From a virus (lineage: Duplodnaviria > Caudoviricetes), in IMG/VR virus record IMGVR_UViG_2775507097_000001, positions 1 through 64,000 of that record: a stretch of 64,000 nt of DNA. One strand, 5' to 3'. The position numbers and the translations under genes are program-made. Positions 3,289 to 50,879 of the stretch are shown here, piece after piece. Under the pieces are notes generated by a model, which saw only the letters and a program-made list of their open reading frames with translations, did not search any database and was not told where the DNA came from. How positions within the stretch are numbered: position 1 is the stretch's first letter; every line of letters begins with the position of its first letter.

Positions 3289-3653
3289 GCCTCTTCCTCT
3301 TCGTCGTCGATGCGGGTCTGGGTGACGGCGATGGTGAGGGGGACGGATCCGTCGGCGTCGGATGCGCAGAACACCCACTGGTTGATGTCCGGGTCGATGT
3401 GGGCGTGTTCGTGGTGGGCCATCTCGACGTACTTGCCGTCGGGCAGGAGTACGTTGCATTCGACGGCGAACGGGGTCTTGGGGAGGTGCCCAAGGCGGAG
3501 GAGGTCGCCGTTCCAGACGCGGAGGCCGGGGTGGGCCTTGACCGCGGCGCCGAGCTGGTTGTCACCGTTCTCGGCGGCGATGAGGGCGTCCACGTTGGCC
3601 TGGTGGAGGGCGGCTGCGAGGGCGGCAATGTAGCCGGGTGTCGGTTCAGGCAT
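3285..3653 (-). CDS. Hypothetical protein
   Basis: Translationally coupled ORF in operon. Confidence 0.7.
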   Translation of the reverse strand: MPEPTPGYIAALAAALHQANVDALIAAENGDNQLGAAVKAHPGLRVWNGDLLRLGHLPKTPFAVECNVLLPDGKYVEMAHHEHAHIDPDINQWVFCASDADGSVPLTIAVTQTRIDDEEEEA

Positions 3654-44034: not shown

Positions 44035-44400
44035 CTACTCCTCGGCGTCGGCCAGGGCCGTCAGCCGCTTCACCACGGTCGACCGCGGCTTGTCCTTCGC
44101 CTGCTCAGCCGCCAGGGCCTGCGCCGCACGCTCGCGGTCGCCGTCCACCCACGACATGAGGTCGTCGATCGTGCCGTCCACCGGCGGACCGTCGCCCTCT
44201 TCCTGCTGCTCGGGCTCGGCCGGGGGCTCCTTCGGCGCCTGAGGCGGCTCGGGGTCCGCCTCCAGGATCTCCACCGATCCCTCGGGAGCGTTGTCGGCGA
44301 AGTGCCGGGCCTGATCGCCCTCCAACTCCGCGTCCTTATGGAACGTGGTGACCGCATAGTTCCAGTACGCGGTGAACTCCTCGAGCACGCGCACGCGCAT
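44035..44400 (-). CDS. Small head-associated protein
   Basis: GTIDDLMSWV...AEQAKDKPRSTVV after capsid gene. Confidence 0.7.
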   Translation of the reverse strand: MRVRVLEEFTAYWNYAVTTFHKDAELEGDQARHFADNAPEGSVEILEADPEPPQAPKEPPAEPEQQEEGDGPPVDGTIDDLMSWVDGDRERAAQALAAEQAKDKPRSTVVKRLTALADAEE

Positions 44401-44470: not shown

Positions 44471-45808
44471 TCAGGCGTGCTCGATGACAACGCCGCGCTT
44501 GTACAGCGCCGCATCGCCCGTGCCCGCATCGGACGGAACACCGAAGTCACCGACCCACGACCAGGTCGAGGAGATGACCTGCTGCAGGCGGTCCTGCGCC
44601 GGACGCACCAGCAGGGTGACGTCCACGGCAGGCGCGGCCTGGATGGTGCGGATCTCGGGCACGTCCTCGACGCCGGTTCCGGCGAGGAGACTGTTGGTGC
44701 CCTCGAACGGAGCCGCCATCAGCGCGTTCGCACCCAGCACGATCGGCCGGTGCACGAGCAGGGTGCCCGCCGAGCCGCCGTTGGCGATGGTCGGGGCCTC
44801 GAGGTTGCGGACCCAGTCGATGCCGGCGAAACGCCCGATGCTGAGGTCCCGGTAGATCGGGGAGTCGATGCGGCCCTGAAGGGCCTGCTTGAAGTCGGAG
44901 TCCGCGAACAGCTGGGCCTCGGTGTCGGGGTCGATGTGGGCGACGTAGTAGCCGCCGACGGTCGGGACCGCCATCTTCCGCAGGCGCGCCACGGCGGCCC
45001 TGAAGTTCGCGAACGTCACCGTGTTCGACCCGGTCAGGTCGTAGGCGGAGTTGCCGGTCGCCCGGACCGAGATCGGAGCGTTCGCCGCGACCACGTAGTC
45101 ACCGGCGACGTCGACGCGGGCAGTGCCCAGGGTCAGCGTCTTGGTGCCGAGGTTCACGCCGGTCACCGTGTTGCCGGTGCCCGCGATCGACACGGTGAGC
45201 GGGTTGGACGCCGACACGGCGGTCGGGACACCGTTGACCATGACGGTCTCGAAGCCGTCCGTCGAATTGACGATGATCGACGTGTCCGAGGACCCGGCCG
45301 TGGTGCACCAGGTCCGGCCGCCCGCGTAGGCCTTGAACAGCTTGTTCCGGGCCACCTGGTTGATGGTCTGACCTGCGTTGATGCCGAGGTTCTCCACGTC
45401 GGCGAGGAACTTGCTCGCGAGGGCCATCGAACTGCCCAGCATGTTGGTGTCCATCGAGTTCGCGTACTGGTCCATCGTCACGGACCACTGCTCGATGCTG
45501 TACGTGGCCGCCGACGGGTCCGACCCGGTCACCGGAGTGGTGACGGGGGCGAGCAGGCCCTTGCGGGTGAAAGTCTTGGTGTCACCCAGGCCGCCCATCC
45601 ACGGCTCCGCGTCCGCGATCTGTGGGAACAGGAAGTTCGGCACCAGCGCGTCCCGGAACACGCGGTCGAGCATGCCGTTCTGCAGCATCGCCTGGATGCC
45701 AGCAGGCAGGGACGGCCGGACACCAGCGTGCCGGTCGAGTCGGAACCACGGCCGGGCCGGGCCCTTGACGGAAAGCCGCGGACGGGCCGCGGTCAGGCTG
45801 GGGGTCAT
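44471..45808 (-). CDS. Major capsid protein
   Basis: 445 aa; position after scaffold; YYVAHIDP, IGRFAGIDW, DRLQQ. Confidence 0.9.
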   Translation of the reverse strand: MTPSLTAARPRLSVKGPARPWFRLDRHAGVRPSLPAGIQAMLQNGMLDRVFRDALVPNFLFPQIADAEPWMGGLGDTKTFTRKGLLAPVTTPVTGSDPSAATYSIEQWSVTMDQYANSMDTNMLGSSMALASKFLADVENLGINAGQTINQVARNKLFKAYAGGRTWCTTAGSSDTSIIVNSTDGFETVMVNGVPTAVSASNPLTVSIAGTGNTVTGVNLGTKTLTLGTARVDVAGDYVVAANAPISVRATGNSAYDLTGSNTVTFANFRAAVARLRKMAVPTVGGYYVAHIDPDTEAQLFADSDFKQALQGRIDSPIYRDLSIGRFAGIDWVRNLEAPTIANGGSAGTLLVHRPIVLGANALMAAPFEGTNSLLAGTGVEDVPEIRTIQAAPAVDVTLLVRPAQDRLQQVISSTWSWVGDFGVPSDAGTGDAALYKRGVVIEHA

Positions 45809-45809
45809 G

Positions 45810-45998
45810 TCACTCCTCAGTGATCTCTACGGACACCAGGTCCGGGTATTGCTCAGCGACCATCTGGAGGCCGAGCAGTGCGGTTTGGGCGATGGCCGAA
45901 ACGGCGGCGCAGACGCGACCCCCAGCGGCGTGCTCCTCGTGACCGGCCACCGTTATCTCGGTGCGCCCGTCGCCCAGATGGGCACGGACTTCGATCAC
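45810..45998 (-). CDS. prp: Prp-family (YsxB/DUF464) cysteine protease
   Basis: MIEV...ITVAGH...VCAAVSAI...QYPD.V; His/Cys dyad motifs. Confidence 0.85.
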   Translation of the reverse strand: MIEVRAHLGDGRTEITVAGHEEHAAGGRVCAAVSAIAQTALLGLQMVAEQYPDLVSVEITEE

Positions 45999-46729
45999 AC
46001 GCGTTGCCTGTAGCCGTACTTGGCGAGCTCCGCGGCGACCTGGTCCTTCGAGGCCTCGAGGTAGTTCACCGGCGCGGGAGCACCGCGCGAGCCCTGGCCG
46101 GGGTCCGGCTTGGGCTGCGGCTTCTTCTCGGGGGCCGGAGCAGCCGGCTCGGGCCTGGCCCAGTGCGGCTTACGCTCCAGCAGGTCCGACAGGGCCGTCT
46201 CGATGGCGTCCGTGTCGATCTCGCCGTCGGCGTCGACGTACTGGCTGGGGTCACGCATCAGCACGTCCACCGCGTCAGTCGGGTCGGCGAACTCTCCGGC
46301 CGCCGCACGGACCTCGGCAGCCACAGCGCGCGCCGTGGCCTTCGCAGCCTGCTTCTCGGACCGTTCGGCCTTCGCCGCGAGCTTCTCCGACTCGGTCCGG
46401 TCGCGGTCCTTGAACTCCTCAACCTGGCGGGCGAGGTCGTCGGCGCGCTTCTTCTCCGCGGCCGCGGCCTTCCGGGCTTCCGCCTTCTCGGCCTTCATAC
46501 GGTCGAGCGCTTTCTTACCCGCGTTGCCGAGCTTGTCGGCGCCCTCGGGCTCCGGCTCAGGCTCGGGGTCCGCCGGATCGTCTGCAGGATCCGGGGCGGG
46601 CTCGGGGTCTGCGGGGTCGTCCGCCGGGTCCGGAGCAGGCTCGGGGTCGGACGGCTCGGGGTCGTCGTGTCGGGACAGGTTGAACCAGGCGATCCCGGTT
46701 GCCGGGACCTTCTCAATCTCGGTGGACAT
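45995..46729 (-). CDS. Capsid scaffolding protein
   Basis: D/P/E-rich N-terminal repeats, LGNAGKKALDRMK coiled coil, KPHW; start re-called. Confidence 0.9.
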   Translation of the reverse strand: MSTEIEKVPATGIAWFNLSRHDDPEPSDPEPAPDPADDPADPEPAPDPADDPADPEPEPEPEGADKLGNAGKKALDRMKAEKAEARKAAAAEKKRADDLARQVEEFKDRDRTESEKLAAKAERSEKQAAKATARAVAAEVRAAAGEFADPTDAVDVLMRDPSQYVDADGEIDTDAIETALSDLLERKPHWARPEPAAPAPEKKPQPKPDPGQGSRGAPAPVNYLEASKDQVAAELAKYGYRQRV

Positions 46730-46819: not shown

Positions 46820-47857
46820 CTAGGACAGATAGCCGAAGCGCTTGAGCATCCCGATCAGCTCGTCGCGATCTTCGGAGAGTCGGAGGATCTCGCTGGGCGT
46901 GAGCCGCGGCGTCTTCAGGTGGAAGCGCGGCAGTCCCTGTTCCACGTCGGCGCGGCCGCGAGCGAACCGTTGGCCCGTGCGCTGCTCCGCCTCGCGGCGC
47001 ATCTGCTGGAAGAACTCCCCGCGGCGCGTCGTGCCCTCGAGCGTGGCCACGACCTTCTTGCCGTAAGCGTCCAACGTCACCGTCGACCGACCCGCGTTGA
47101 CGACCTTGTAGATGTCGGCGCCGTTCCGGATCGCCTCAGCGCCGCCGATCGTGAACCGGCGATCCTGCTCAGCGCGCGACAGGCCGTTGAAGAACGACAT
47201 CGGGTTCACGTGCCGCCCAGGGCGCGCATCGGTGGCGGGAACCCCATAACAAGCGCACCTTTTGTGACGTTGAAAGTCCGCGTTCCACCGGTACCAGCGA
47301 CCCGCCAGGATCGCGCACCTCGCGCAAGCTCCCGCCCGGACTTGCCGGACGTAGCCCGTCACCGAACGGTTCGCGACCATCGCCACACCAGCCGCGCCGC
47401 GGCCCGCATCCGCGACCTCCGACGCGGCAATCCGCAGCAACTGGGCCTGCCCGGCGAGCATCGCCTCCTGCAGCGTCAGGCCGCCGCCGATCAGCGTCTT
47501 CGTGCGGATCACCGGCAGGTACAGTAGCGAGTCCAGCGTCCGGCCGTCCGCGGCGACACCCGAAAACGAGCGGGCATCCACACGCGCCGCCTGCTCCAGG
47601 TAGTCGTTGCTGAGGCCGTCCATGCGGACCATCGCCTCGATGTACGGCTGGCCCGTGGACGCCGCCACCAGCTGGCCGGCGGACACGGCCCGGACCATCG
47701 CCGCACCCAAGCCCTGCAACCAGGACCCGGACAGGTCTGCAGCGGCAAGCCGCTTCCACAGCCGTTCCATCGTGACCGTCGTCTGAATGACGGCCCGCTG
47801 CTGAGACCGGCCGTAGGCGTCGACGATGGCCGCGTGGGCCTGCGTTGCAACGGCCAC
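46820..47857 (-). CDS. Minor capsid / MuF-like protein
   Basis: GYVR...ACARCAILAG...FQRHKRCAC after portal. Confidence 0.8.
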   Translation of the reverse strand: MAVATQAHAAIVDAYGRSQQRAVIQTTVTMERLWKRLAAADLSGSWLQGLGAAMVRAVSAGQLVAASTGQPYIEAMVRMDGLSNDYLEQAARVDARSFSGVAADGRTLDSLLYLPVIRTKTLIGGGLTLQEAMLAGQAQLLRIAASEVADAGRGAAGVAMVANRSVTGYVRQVRAGACARCAILAGRWYRWNADFQRHKRCACYGVPATDARPGRHVNPMSFFNGLSRAEQDRRFTIGGAEAIRNGADIYKVVNAGRSTVTLDAYGKKVVATLEGTTRRGEFFQQMRREAEQRTGQRFARGRADVEQGLPRFHLKTPRLTPSEILRLSEDRDELIGMLKRFGYLS

Positions 47858-47858
47858 G

Positions 47859-49241
47859 TCAGCCTCCCGCAGGGGCCTCGAGCGGCTGCGGCTCCGGCTG
47901 GGCGGTGGACAGCTGGTGCAGATCCATCGCCGTCATCCGGGTCAGGGCCTCGTCCTGCATGCCCCGCATTCGGTCCCGCTGCACTGCGCTGTAGCCGAGG
48001 TCTTCCCATGCCTGCTCGGTCGGCAGGATGCCGCTGGCGTGGAGTTTCACGACGGCGTCGGCTTTCTGTGCGTAGGTCGGAGTCGCCGGGTCCCGCCACA
48101 CGGTCTCGAGCTTGCCGGTCCGCGGGTCGAGTTTGCCGTCCCGGACCAGCAGGACGAGCCGCATGACGCGTTCCCACGCCTCGCCGAACGCCCGCTGACG
48201 CCGCTCCGCGCGCTTCACCAGACGAGCCTCCGACGCGCGGATCGCGTCCGCGGACGGCGGCTGATCGGTGGCCAGGCCGAGGAATGCGGGCGGCAGGCCC
48301 GTCAGGGCAGCCACCAGACGCGCAAGAACGTTGATCGTCTCGTGGAAGTTCGACAGCTGCGCCTCGGGGAACTGGCCGAACTTGACGTTGTCGCCCTCGT
48401 TCACCCACAGGCGGCCCGCCAGCGACGACATCGCACCGAGCGGCTGCCCGTTCTCGTCGGCGAAGTCGTCCCGGGACATGCCCGTCGCCCACCGGCGCGG
48501 CATCGCGTGATACTCCGCGCTGACCATCATGTCCGAGGCGATCTTGCAGGCCGCATCCGAGATCGGAATGACGGAGCGCAGTTCAGACGTGCCGTCCAGG
48601 TGGCGCAGCCGCGGCCGGTTCGCCAGCGGGACGACAAGCACCTGGCCGAGCTTGTGCTCGTCCTGCTCAACCGCGGTCCAAGCGCCCTTCTGCTGCTCGA
48701 ACGTGATCCGCTTGTTCGGCAGATACAGCGTCGCCCACTTCACCGGGGCAGCCCCCGCGGAGGGTTCATCCCACCGCTTGATCGCCGCCATCACCTGCCG
48801 GGTACGAGGATCCCGCTCCGCGAACACCTCGAGGGCGGACTCTGCGGTGATGATCGGCGTGGCCTCGTCGTCCTCGTTCGCGCCGATGATCGCGTAAGAC
48901 CGTTTCAGGGCCAGCGCATCGACGTGGGCCTGCTGGCTGCCCTCGTCCATGTCGGAGGCCTGCCACACCGACCACAGATCCTCCGCCGTGGTCTCACTGT
49001 CCGCGTACCGGAAGCCCTCGACGTCCAGCCGCTCATCCAGCGCGTCCACCACCAGTTGCGGCCAGTTGATGACCAGCTGCCGCATCCGGTCCGACAGCTC
49101 CGACTGGATCTCCGGCGCTAGATACGACAGAGGCTGCGTGCCCTCGTAGTAGCTGTCCATCAACCGCAGATTCGGCAGATCGTTGTCGTGCGCCGCAATC
49201 AGCCGCTTCAGCCAGGCATCCGGCTCGAGGTCGAGGGCCAC
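47859..49241 (-). CDS. Portal protein (SPP1 gp6-like)
   Basis: YYEGTQPL, NWPQLVVD, PSADAIRA.E.RL, WRDP. Confidence 0.95.
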   Translation of the reverse strand: MALDLEPDAWLKRLIAAHDNDLPNLRLMDSYYEGTQPLSYLAPEIQSELSDRMRQLVINWPQLVVDALDERLDVEGFRYADSETTAEDLWSVWQASDMDEGSQQAHVDALALKRSYAIIGANEDDEATPIITAESALEVFAERDPRTRQVMAAIKRWDEPSAGAAPVKWATLYLPNKRITFEQQKGAWTAVEQDEHKLGQVLVVPLANRPRLRHLDGTSELRSVIPISDAACKIASDMMVSAEYHAMPRRWATGMSRDDFADENGQPLGAMSSLAGRLWVNEGDNVKFGQFPEAQLSNFHETINVLARLVAALTGLPPAFLGLATDQPPSADAIRASEARLVKRAERRQRAFGEAWERVMRLVLLVRDGKLDPRTGKLETVWRDPATPTYAQKADAVVKLHASGILPTEQAWEDLGYSAVQRDRMRGMQDEALTRMTAMDLHQLSTAQPEPQPLEAPAGG

Positions 49242-49259: not shown

Positions 49260-50879
49260 TCATCGCATCACAGTCGTCTTCCGGGAGCGCGGCGGCTCGT
49301 TGCCGCCCGCCTTGATTGCGTCCCGTCGGGCTTCCCAGGACAGGCAGCCCGCCATGGAAAGGTCGATCTTCCGAGGGGAGTCGTGGCGGTCCTTCTGGAT
49401 CACCCACATCGGCTTGCCCTCGTCGTCCTTCACTCCGGCGTTCCGCTTCACCGCATGGGCGATGTGCCGGGCGAAGGCGTCGCTGCCGTCGTGCGACAGC
49501 TCGCCGCCCGTCATTGCCGTCTTGTACGCGCGCAGGGCGAACGCCATCTGGCGGCGCCGGTGCGTCCACCACTCGGTGACGACCTTCGGGCCGTACTTGC
49601 CGGCCCAGCCCGCGATCGTCTCCTCCCAGTAGGCCGGGTCCGCGTAGACGCGCACGACCCGCCACGTTTGCATGGCCTCGTCCAGTACGGCGTTCACCTC
49701 GGCCTCGGGGACTTCCCACGATTCGGCCTCCTGCTTGTTCGCAGGCGACTCCCACACCCCGAGCACCCACTGGTGGCCCGTCTCGATGTGGGTCGCGATG
49801 AAGCCTGTCGAGTCGCTCCACTTCGACCCGTCGAAGCCGATCGCGATCGCTTCCTTCGCCGGGACGATGAAGTGCGAGTCCGCCAACTCCCGCCAGCGCC
49901 CCGGGTCGAACGCCTTCGCTGAGGCGGTTCCGGGCTGGTTCAGGAAGTACCTGCGGGCGTCCGCCGGATCGGTGTCCGGCTCCCGCATATCGCTGGCAAT
50001 CCGCTCGAGATCCATCCACTTCGCTGCGTCGCCGTACACGAACTCCAGAGCGGGCAGCAGCTGGTCGTCGTCGTGCAGGTCCTCGACATGCGGGGCTTCG
50101 CGGTGGTCAAAGAGCAGACCGCCGTCACGTACCCGGCCCGAGGCGACCGCCTTGTGGTACTCGTGCGTCGCCTCCGCCACCGAACTCTCGCCGACCGCAT
50201 ACATCGTCGACGTCTCCAGTGACCACGGCTCGGCAGCACGGCGCTTCACCAGGTTGCGGCGCACCGTCTTGTGCATGGCCTTCAGCTCGGGCAGGACGTA
50301 CAGGTGCGTCTCGTCGAAGACGCTGAACGTCTCCTTGCCGCCATCCTTCGCGGCGCCGGACGACGTCGACGGGACGATCTCGCCGCCGCCCTCGATGAAG
50401 ATGCGGCTCGACGTCTGCGCCGAACGCCCCAGGTCGATTCCCGGGAACTCGTCGCCGGCGTATTCGACGAGGTGCTCGAGCATCGCCGTGACGTTGTCGT
50501 AGGTGTTGCCGGACTGGTTCTCCTCCGTCGCCAGGCAGCGAATGAAGGGGTACACCTGCGCGCGGCCCACCGGATCACCGGCAGCGTCCCAGCCGTCGAA
50601 CCTGCACGGCCCCAGCGCCTCGAAGCACACCAGCGCGCCGGCGAGCTCGCTCTTCGCCCTGCCCTTCGGCCGGGACAGGAACGCGCGGTTGACCTTCCGG
50701 CGGCCCGTCACCGGGTCGAGCTGGTAGGCCTTGACGATGAACGCGGCCATCTCGTCGTCGATGAGCAGAGGCTCGCCCTGCACGTCGCCGGGACCGTGGC
50801 ACAGGTAGTGCTCGATCCAGTCGATGGCCTCGAAGCCGAGGGAGACGAAGCGGTCCGGGTCAGCTATCCGCCTGGCCAT
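49260..50879 (-). CDS. terL: Terminase large subunit
   Basis: RPKGRAKSE Walker A, FDETH Walker B, GFDGS..DST, KID nuclease motifs. Confidence 0.97.
   Translation of the reverse strand: MARRIADPDRFVSLGFEAIDWIEHYLCHGPGDVQGEPLLIDDEMAAFIVKAYQLDPVTGRRKVNRAFLSRPKGRAKSELAGALVCFEALGPCRFDGWDAAGDPVGRAQVYPFIRCLATEENQSGNTYDNVTAMLEHLVEYAGDEFPGIDLGRSAQTSSRIFIEGGGEIVPSTSSGAAKDGGKETFSVFDETHLYVLPELKAMHKTVRRNLVKRRAAEPWSLETSTMYAVGESSVAEATHEYHKAVASGRVRDGGLLFDHREAPHVEDLHDDDQLLPALEFVYGDAAKWMDLERIASDMREPDTDPADARRYFLNQPGTASAKAFDPGRWRELADSHFIVPAKEAIAIGFDGSKWSDSTGFIATHIETGHQWVLGVWESPANKQEAESWEVPEAEVNAVLDEAMQTWRVVRVYADPAYWEETIAGWAGKYGPKVVTEWWTHRRRQMAFALRAYKTAMTGGELSHDGSDAFARHIAHAVKRNAGVKDDEGKPMWVIQKDRHDSPRKIDLSMAGCLSWEARRDAIKAGGNEPPRSRKTTVMR

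Follow-up and report, generated by a model that had tools for sequence, protein, structure and literature searches.

In Firmicutes, Prp is essential for the maturation of the ribosome, and one staphylococcal phage is known to borrow the enzyme; the locus described here raises the question of what a gene of the same family does between the scaffold and capsid genes of an actinomycete phage. The locus lies in the virus record IMGVR_UViG_2775507097_000001, of which we analysed positions 1 to 64,000 (this whole stretch of 64,000 nucleotides is called the window below). Its source is a prophage in a Streptomyces-type genome of 11,669,312 bases, with a DNA of ~69% guanine plus cytosine (GC). A first-pass annotation, made from the sequence alone, had noticed a Prp-like gene of 62 amino acids (aa) between the two head genes, as well as a WFxLxRH motif common to the N-terminal leaders of the scaffold and capsid proteins, and had proposed a self-contained maturation system with a new recognition sequence, cut after the His. 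A comparison of this small protein, hereafter mini-Prp, and of its two presumptive substrates with their relatives makes it likely that mini-Prp removes both leaders by cutting after the His.

The mini-Prp gene is an open reading frame (ORF) at 45810-45998 on the minus strand, encoding 62 aa. It matches the PHROG family phrog_4478 ('peptidase') and the Pfam family PF04327, the latter with 29.9 bits (gathering cut-off, 27) over profile positions 1-57 of 90. Its scores on the NCBIfam equivalog models for Prp fall far under their cut-offs. The protein has G19-H20 and C30-A-A-V-S34, the equivalents of Gly21, His22, Cys34 and Ser38 in Staphylococcus aureus Prp, the roles of which have been described (PMC9261936); the codons of the presumptive dyad are 45941-45939 for His20 and 45911-45909 for Cys30. 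A search of 5.8 billion proteins returned homologues in 144 clusters, nearly all of 61-67 aa and 66-97% identical, from Streptomyces, Kitasatospora, Nonomuraea, Micromonosporaceae and Streptosporangiaceae. When 56 mini-Prps were aligned, His20, Cys30 and Pro52 did not vary and G19 hardly did, and S34 is nearly invariant in an alignment of 12 sequences. The homologue in the Streptomyces phage Kromp, gp6, is 76% identical to mini-Prp, is labelled 'protease' and likewise lies between the scaffold gene (gp5) and the gene of the major capsid protein (MCP, gp7). At NCBI, the homologues bear the name 'ribosomal-processing cysteine protease Prp', which is misleading for actinomycete prophage genes. 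Judged by these sequences, mini-Prp is a real, conserved member of the Prp family, not a fragment.

The leader of the scaffold protein (21 aa; 46667-46729, minus strand) ends in WFNLSRH (46687-46667), with the predicted cut after His21 and before Asp-Asp-Pro. The leader of the capsid protein (27 aa; 45728-45808, minus strand) ends in WFRLDRH (45748-45728), with the predicted cut after His27, so that the mature protein would start with Ala-Gly-Val-Arg. As the first-pass annotation had it, the two leaders have no similarity upstream of the heptamer. When the whole genome was searched in six frames for WF.L.RH, three matches were found: two of them are the scaffold and capsid N-termini, 939 bases apart, and the remaining one is in a short frame at another place in the genome, six codons ahead of a stop. 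A relaxed form of the pattern occurred in no further ORF of the window. The occurrence of the heptamer as a pair is far beyond chance. A short ORF in DNA of 69% GC, where spurious ORFs are common, nevertheless invites the explanation that neither the motif match nor the small ORF is more than a product of chance or of annotation. We give this explanation next to no weight, as the ORF scores above the Pfam threshold and the motif is essentially unique in the genome; it is refuted by the 144 clusters of homologues of the same length, by the genome-wide motif count and by the presence of the motif in more than 90 distinct relatives (see below).

We also looked at the host background. The whole genome has one match to PF04327, which is mini-Prp in the prophage head module. 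The host ribosomal protein L27 is of the short form and starts MAHKKG, which bears out the earlier statement that actinomycete L27 lacks the N-terminal extension. Its gene, rpmA, is adjacent to rplU with no prp between them, so that the canonical context of Prp, a gene between rplU and rpmA with an extended L27 as the substrate, is absent here. With the sole genomic PF04327 match in the prophage, and with a tag that is present on both substrates and kept in relatives, the idea of a self-contained system with its own recognition sequence is supported by the sequence data.

Conservation of the tag across relatives

Using the capsid protein as a bait, we assembled ~250 loci out of viral contigs, GTDB genomes and GenBank phages, a figure that counts many contigs more than once. 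In each locus, the prp gene was found by a hidden Markov model (HMM) and the capsid N-terminus by a BLAST anchor, and the N-termini were then deduplicated. As far as these sequences tell, the mini-Prp/tag system is widespread in actinomycete prophages and is present in one isolated phage, Kromp. All 94 distinct capsid N-termini linked to a mini-Prp gene have a leader ending in His, with 76 fitting WFx[L/I]xRH and 18 being variants, whereas none of the seven distinct homologous capsids without a nearby Prp gene has a leader. The mixed case, i.e., a prp gene without a His-ending leader or a leader without prp, did not occur among these 94 and 7 N-termini. Hence, the co-conservation of tag and prp, by which the first-pass annotation had suggested that its proposal be checked, is observed in this set; the contrary case that it had named, a relative that keeps prp and loses the motif, was not encountered, since no Prp-linked capsid is without a His-ending leader, although 18 of the 94 have variant tags.

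The conservation is confined to particular positions of the heptamer. At 73 distinct capsid sites, Trp is found at P7 in 65, Phe at P6 in 68, Leu at P4 in 66, Arg at P2 in 69 and His at P1 in all 73. At 79 distinct scaffold sites, the same four residues upstream of P1 are found in 70 (Trp), 77 (Phe), 75 (Leu) and 77 (Arg), and P1 is His in 75 or Phe in four. Positions P5 and P3, as well as the upstream part of the leader (about 8-27 aa), vary freely in both substrates; at P1', the capsids have Asp or Ala, and most of the scaffolds have Asp or Glu. In the crystal of S. aureus Prp with its substrate, KLNLQFF occupies P7-P1; the residues at P1, P2, P4 and P6 make hydrophobic contacts, and the one at P1' is small (PMC9261936).

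The capsids without a Prp gene come from the Ralstonia phages (Hyacinthe and its kin), from Komagataeibacter phages together with Acetobacteraceae prophages, and from a pair of contigs, L241 and L253. These leaderless capsids begin Met-x-Ile-x-Asn-Phe-Pro, and their Met aligns immediately after the tag His where the tagged capsids continue as His-Asp-Val-Arg, and one residue later where they continue as His-Ala-Gly-Val-Arg. This alignment is the strongest in-silico argument that the leader lies outside the capsid fold and that its boundary falls after the His. Together with the invariant His at P1 of the capsids and the match to the P7-P1 footprint, the position of the leaderless Met at P1' or at the next residue supports a cut after the His, as first proposed. 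The contigs L241 and L253 (IMG/VR 3300035198 contigs, 39-44% GC) have homologous scaffold and capsid proteins (the capsid being ~51-56% identical), no prp and no leaders, with the capsid gene directly after the scaffold gene. This phage is a useful natural 'pre-cleaved' comparator.

In phages with off-consensus tags, the change is common to both substrates of the one phage. P2 is Leu on the capsid and scaffold proteins of locus L072 and Ala on both proteins of L118 (from a metagenome-assembled genome of Bifidobacteriaceae), and several Nonomuraea-type loci have an extra residue between the Trp and the Phe, again in both proteins. In loci L185 and L187, the scaffold and the capsid both have LPF[IVL]PxxxRH followed by Asp. 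L185 is the IMG/VR contig 3300044711_000084, with the capsid start near 3543, and L187 is 3300033066_001350, with the start near 2966. A Pro-Phe...His tag (the PFxxVxLxxH lineage) is present on both proteins of L249, as well as on the capsid of its relative L110, the scaffold of which lies outside the locus. The most altered tags go with the most divergent Prps, which score 46-90 bits on the mini-Prp HMM (46-53 bits in L185 and L187) compared with ~120 bits for the rest, and which have longer His-to-Cys loops; the capsids diverge in parallel with the tags and the Prps. The paired tag changes fit a single reader co-evolving with two sites, in a sequence comparison that was made without phylogenetic control, and the LPF[IVL]PxxxRH and Pro-Phe...His lineages look like private protease/tag pairs. 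If mini-Prp is active, the family would offer a clean natural experiment on protease/tag co-evolution.

Fold of mini-Prp and a proposed mechanism

The first-pass annotation had called the protein a minimal Prp, and this description can be made more exact. An alignment-based AlphaFold2 model of mini-Prp, with a predicted local distance difference test (pLDDT) score of 95.9, consists of a beta hairpin, a loop bearing the His and a long helix starting from the Cys; in a single-sequence model (pLDDT 76.6), a final strand follows the helix, giving a beta-beta-alpha(-beta) layout. Full-length Prps (~105 aa) match mini-Prp in two stretches, in that the helix after the Cys fits helix 1 as well as helix 2 of S. 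aureus Prp (structure 4peo), and a sequence search of the PDB gave a weak match to 4peo (E 0.049), also in two stretches. When the mini-Prp helix was compared with 53 full-length Prps, it scored similarly on the two helices (37.3 and 33.1), while its Tyr-Pro-Asp strand tail favoured their C-terminus (26.7 vs 14.8). Helix 1 of the 53 full-length Prps in turn resembles their own C-terminal region (27.7, compared with 16.8 in a shuffled control). An internal repeat, in which helix 1 after the catalytic Cys is similar to helix 2 before the C-terminal strand, was seen in the full-length Prps P0137, P0139 and P0212. The repeat suggests that a beta-beta-alpha unit was duplicated long ago, or else offers a way in which the mini form could have arisen, through a deletion between the two helices.

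A structural search of 48,161 PDB chains placed the Prps 2idl, 1s12, 4peo and 2g0i as four of the top six matches, with Z values of 3.9-4.5 and root-mean-square deviations of 2.4-2.8 A over 51-59 aligned residues, the matches being to their C-terminal half. The fold by which Prps are otherwise recognized, of ~105 aa with two helices, is not that of the 62-aa protein. Taking the models and the alignments together, canonical Prp appears to be built of two beta-beta-alpha units that resemble each other, and mini-Prp to correspond to a single one, in which the catalytic N-terminal part runs straight into the C-terminal end and ~40 central residues are gone. A Prp that is minimal in the sense of being one structural unit of a two-unit fold is thus the form in which the earlier description was borne out. 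If the single-unit reading is true, the family would show whether canonical Prp arose by duplication or the mini form by deletion.

Within the retained part, mini-Prps differ from S. aureus Prp at two places. They have a conserved Arg (Arg28 here) two residues before the Cys, in the place of Asp31-Ile32, and Phe42, against which the P1 and P2 Phe of the substrate are stacked in the S. aureus enzyme (PMC9261936), is replaced by Gln.

Short Prps of 66-69 aa, from DNA of low GC, were considered as members of the same system and rejected, as they lie among small non-structural genes with no adjoining capsid gene. Such proteins (P0161 at L121:665-874, P0133 at L122:3161-3361, and also P0163) are encoded on phage-like contigs and keep the Asp-Ile before the Cys; the neighbours of the one in L121 are genes for a dUTPase, RusA and an HNH protein.

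What is observed are the genes themselves, the conserved dyad, and a tag that stands on two substrates, is conserved and occurs exclusively together with the protease gene; from these we infer the cleavage, the identity of the enzyme, the scissile bond and the oligomeric state. In the proposed mechanism, a temperate actinomycete phage would carry its own self-contained system for processing head proteins. Mini-Prp would act as a Prp-family cysteine endopeptidase with the dyad His20/Cys30, binding W-F-x-L-x-R-H as P7-P1 at the leader ends of the scaffold and the MCP, and the cut after the His would free 21 residues from the former and 27 from the latter. Before their removal, the leaders may serve in assembly or folding, by analogy with the staphylococcal phage 80alpha. 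Being one beta-beta-alpha(-beta) unit of two, mini-Prp would probably have to oligomerize to complete its substrate groove; that the unit dimerizes to rebuild a two-lobed groove is a speculation, as is the idea that the conserved Arg before the Cys substitutes for the lost Asp and meets the acidic P1' residue. The fuller proposal, which combines a single unit, a homo-oligomeric groove, a change of specificity from Phe-Phe|Ala to Arg-His|Asp and an orthogonal set of private, co-evolving protease/tag pairs, seems plausible to us and falls somewhat short of being probable.

Other explanations and the head module

A number of observations weigh against the removal of the leaders by mini-Prp. The Prp-less comparators belong to only about three lineages, and the co-occurrence of tag and prp therefore rests on few independent events. 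Moreover, the protein is without ~40 central residues of canonical Prp, and Asp31-Ile32 of S. aureus Prp is deleted, leaving G-R-V-C in the place of G-x-D-I-V-C. The D31A exchange inactivates S. aureus Prp (PMC9261936), and the activity of mini-Prp cannot be assumed because the Asp31 equivalent and the central residues are gone. The Z values of the structural matches are low taken alone, being consistent with the sequence evidence, and Foldseek, run on the PDB, found no structure at E <= 0.001, with 1s12 only at rank 48. Finally, capsid cleavage is dispensable in 80alpha, where the N-terminus of the scaffold is needed for assembly and its cleavage is not (PMC5744158), and the biological need for the cut is uncertain for this reason. 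To these points are added the ones that favour a different enzyme, which are given next.

The gene upstream of the scaffold gene, which follows that of the portal, is the source of the one annotated rival for the role of the protease. It encodes a MuF/gp7-like minor head protein of 345 aa (46820-47857, minus strand), with a PF25310 (VG15) match under the cut-off, and its relatives, Kromp gp4 (L001:3866-4882) and the family phrog_1522, are labelled 'capsid maturation protease'. The leaders could then be removed by this protein, or by a host protease, and mini-Prp could have a different role. The absence of an Asp31 equivalent would suit such a role, and the Ralstonia and Komagataeibacter phages are without leaders, without prp and without the MuF-like gene alike, so that the co-occurrence does not discriminate between the two genes. 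However, the MuF-like protein fits only positions 18-346 of the 591 of phrog_1522, searches of Pfam, NCBIfam and the PDB showed no protease domain in it, and a gene for a MuF-type minor head protein is retained downstream of the portal in the leaderless, low-GC contig L253. Besides, the seven-residue register of the tag agrees with the biochemistry of Prp, and the invariant catalytic His and Cys of mini-Prp are hard to explain for a protein that is not an enzyme. Removal of the leaders by an enzyme other than mini-Prp is thus very unlikely in our judgement, and the protease label on the MuF-like gene is probably an inherited misannotation in this phage group. A search of the whole genome for Peptidase_S78 (HK97-type) and S49 domains was negative at E <= 0.01, and control genomes responded to it. 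The earlier statement that no HK97-type prohead protease is present therefore stands for these domains and extends to the whole genome, with the reservation that, in other records, the MuF-like neighbour bears a protease annotation.

Cleavage itself might also be questioned, with the heptamer being a tag for assembly or docking that is retained in the virion proteins, and mini-Prp binding to it as a chaperone or regulator without cutting. The behaviour of 80alpha, cited above for its scaffold, would agree with this, as would the drastic reduction of mini-Prp in size. On the other hand, the His/Cys dyad and the Ser four residues past the Cys are kept as in active Prps. The leaderless capsid homologues start at the predicted cut or one residue after it, which argues that the leader does not belong to the capsid fold, and the conservation ends abruptly at P1, with P1' differing between the two substrates. 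A retained tag that is bound and not cut is accordingly improbable, and cleavage of both leaders by mini-Prp remains the reading that we prefer.

The genes around mini-Prp form a head module in the order terminase, portal, MuF-like protein, scaffold, prp, MCP and head-tail adaptor, all of the following being on the minus strand. The large terminase gene lies at 49260-50879 and is followed by that of an SPP1-type portal at 47859-49241 (PF05133 SPP1_portal, 1.3e-49). Downstream of the MuF-like gene, the scaffolding protein (45995-46729; 244 aa from the ATG at 46729) matches phrog_4708 (head scaffolding, 3.7e-23) and is homologous to the Kromp scaffolding protein gp5; its ORF stays open to 46804, and the ATG at 46729 is the likely start, being preceded by the ribosome-binding site GAAGGGG. 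The MCP (44471-45808; 445 aa) is of the HK97 fold and the N4 gp56-like kind. It matches phrog_1357 (major head protein, 2.2e-24), scores 52.7 bits on the NCBIfam model TIGR04387 (N4-gp56 family MCP), under the cut-off of 60, and is 57.6% identical to the MCP of Kromp. The GTG start of prp overlaps the stop of the scaffold gene (GTGA), and the capsid ATG lies one base past the prp stop, behind a GAGGAG site. With these overlaps and ribosome-binding sites, the scaffold, protease and capsid genes look translationally coupled.

Two further observations concern the capsid and its surroundings. Homologues of the MCP, 32-36% identical, occur in Ralstonia and Komagataeibacter phages that have sheathed tails, and by this sequence relationship the same capsid type serves different tail types. 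Immediately after the capsid gene, at 44035-44400 on the minus strand, lies a gene for a 121-aa protein with an acidic, Pro/Glu-rich centre, the position of which is kept in relatives (e.g., L268 and L273); it is without a Pfam or PHROG match and may be a decoration or head-completion protein.

Comparison with known systems

What is new in relation to known Prp is a protein of half the size with a different recognition tag. If active, mini-Prp would define how small a specific cysteine endopeptidase can be, and to our knowledge it would rank among the smallest sequence-specific cysteine endopeptidases. A protease of 62 residues with a tag of seven could also serve as a small orthogonal processing tool.

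The proposed role, i.e., the maturation cleavage of capsid and scaffold N-termini, is that of the HK97 gp4-type (S78) and related serine prohead proteases. These proteases have a targeting segment by which they are packaged into the prohead, and the part that they remove is usually a long delta domain. Mini-Prp differs from them in having an unrelated fold and chemistry. A further enzyme to compare is the protease of the pneumococcal phage Cp-1, named as the only other member of MEROPS clan CR (PMC9405229). Like mini-Prp, it is a phage-encoded cysteine protease of this clan, and it removes an N-terminal extension of the MCP, so phage-encoded clan CR proteases are not new in principle. By its description, the Cp-1 enzyme is set apart by belonging to another family, by the longer extension (~40 aa) and by its podovirus origin. 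A 2022 review of Prp does not mention actinobacteria (PMC9405229), and we found no description of the mini form and its tag in the searchable literature, a search that leaves most subscription journals outside.

The nearest known system is S. aureus Prp (YsxB, PF04327, MEROPS C108), which acts on L27 and on the scaffold and capsid proteins of 80alpha (PMC5744158, PMC9261936), and which belongs to the same family, with the same G-H...C-A-x-x-S pattern. As in the case of 80alpha, a shared tag of seven residues ends the leaders of both the scaffold and the capsid, with Leu at P4 and a hydrophobic P6, here Phe. Some actinomycete scaffolds have Phe at P1, as in the S. aureus register, and the substrates are in both cases parts of large self-assembling complexes. 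The differences lie in the enzyme as well as in the site. The protease is encoded by the phage here and by the host in 80alpha, has 62 aa instead of 106 and would form one unit instead of two; the equivalent of Asp31-Ile32 is deleted, and an Arg precedes the Cys by two residues. In the tag, WFxLxRH with Asp or Ala after it stands in the place of the KLNLQFF and Ala of S. aureus, so that P2 and P1 are Arg and His instead of Phe-Phe, and P1' is often acidic. A tag resembling the L27 extension of the host and cut between Phe and Ala, by which an 80alpha-type system would be recognized, is not what is found at this locus. A 2025 preprint from the Prp field still states that prp accompanies the L27 extension and that bacteria lacking the extension also lack the gene (PMC12324487). 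Unlike the Firmicutes setting, the host phylum here has neither Prp nor the L27 extension, which suggests, on the sequence comparisons given above, that the Prp family serves as a private tool of the phage in a phylum whose ribosomes do not need Prp.

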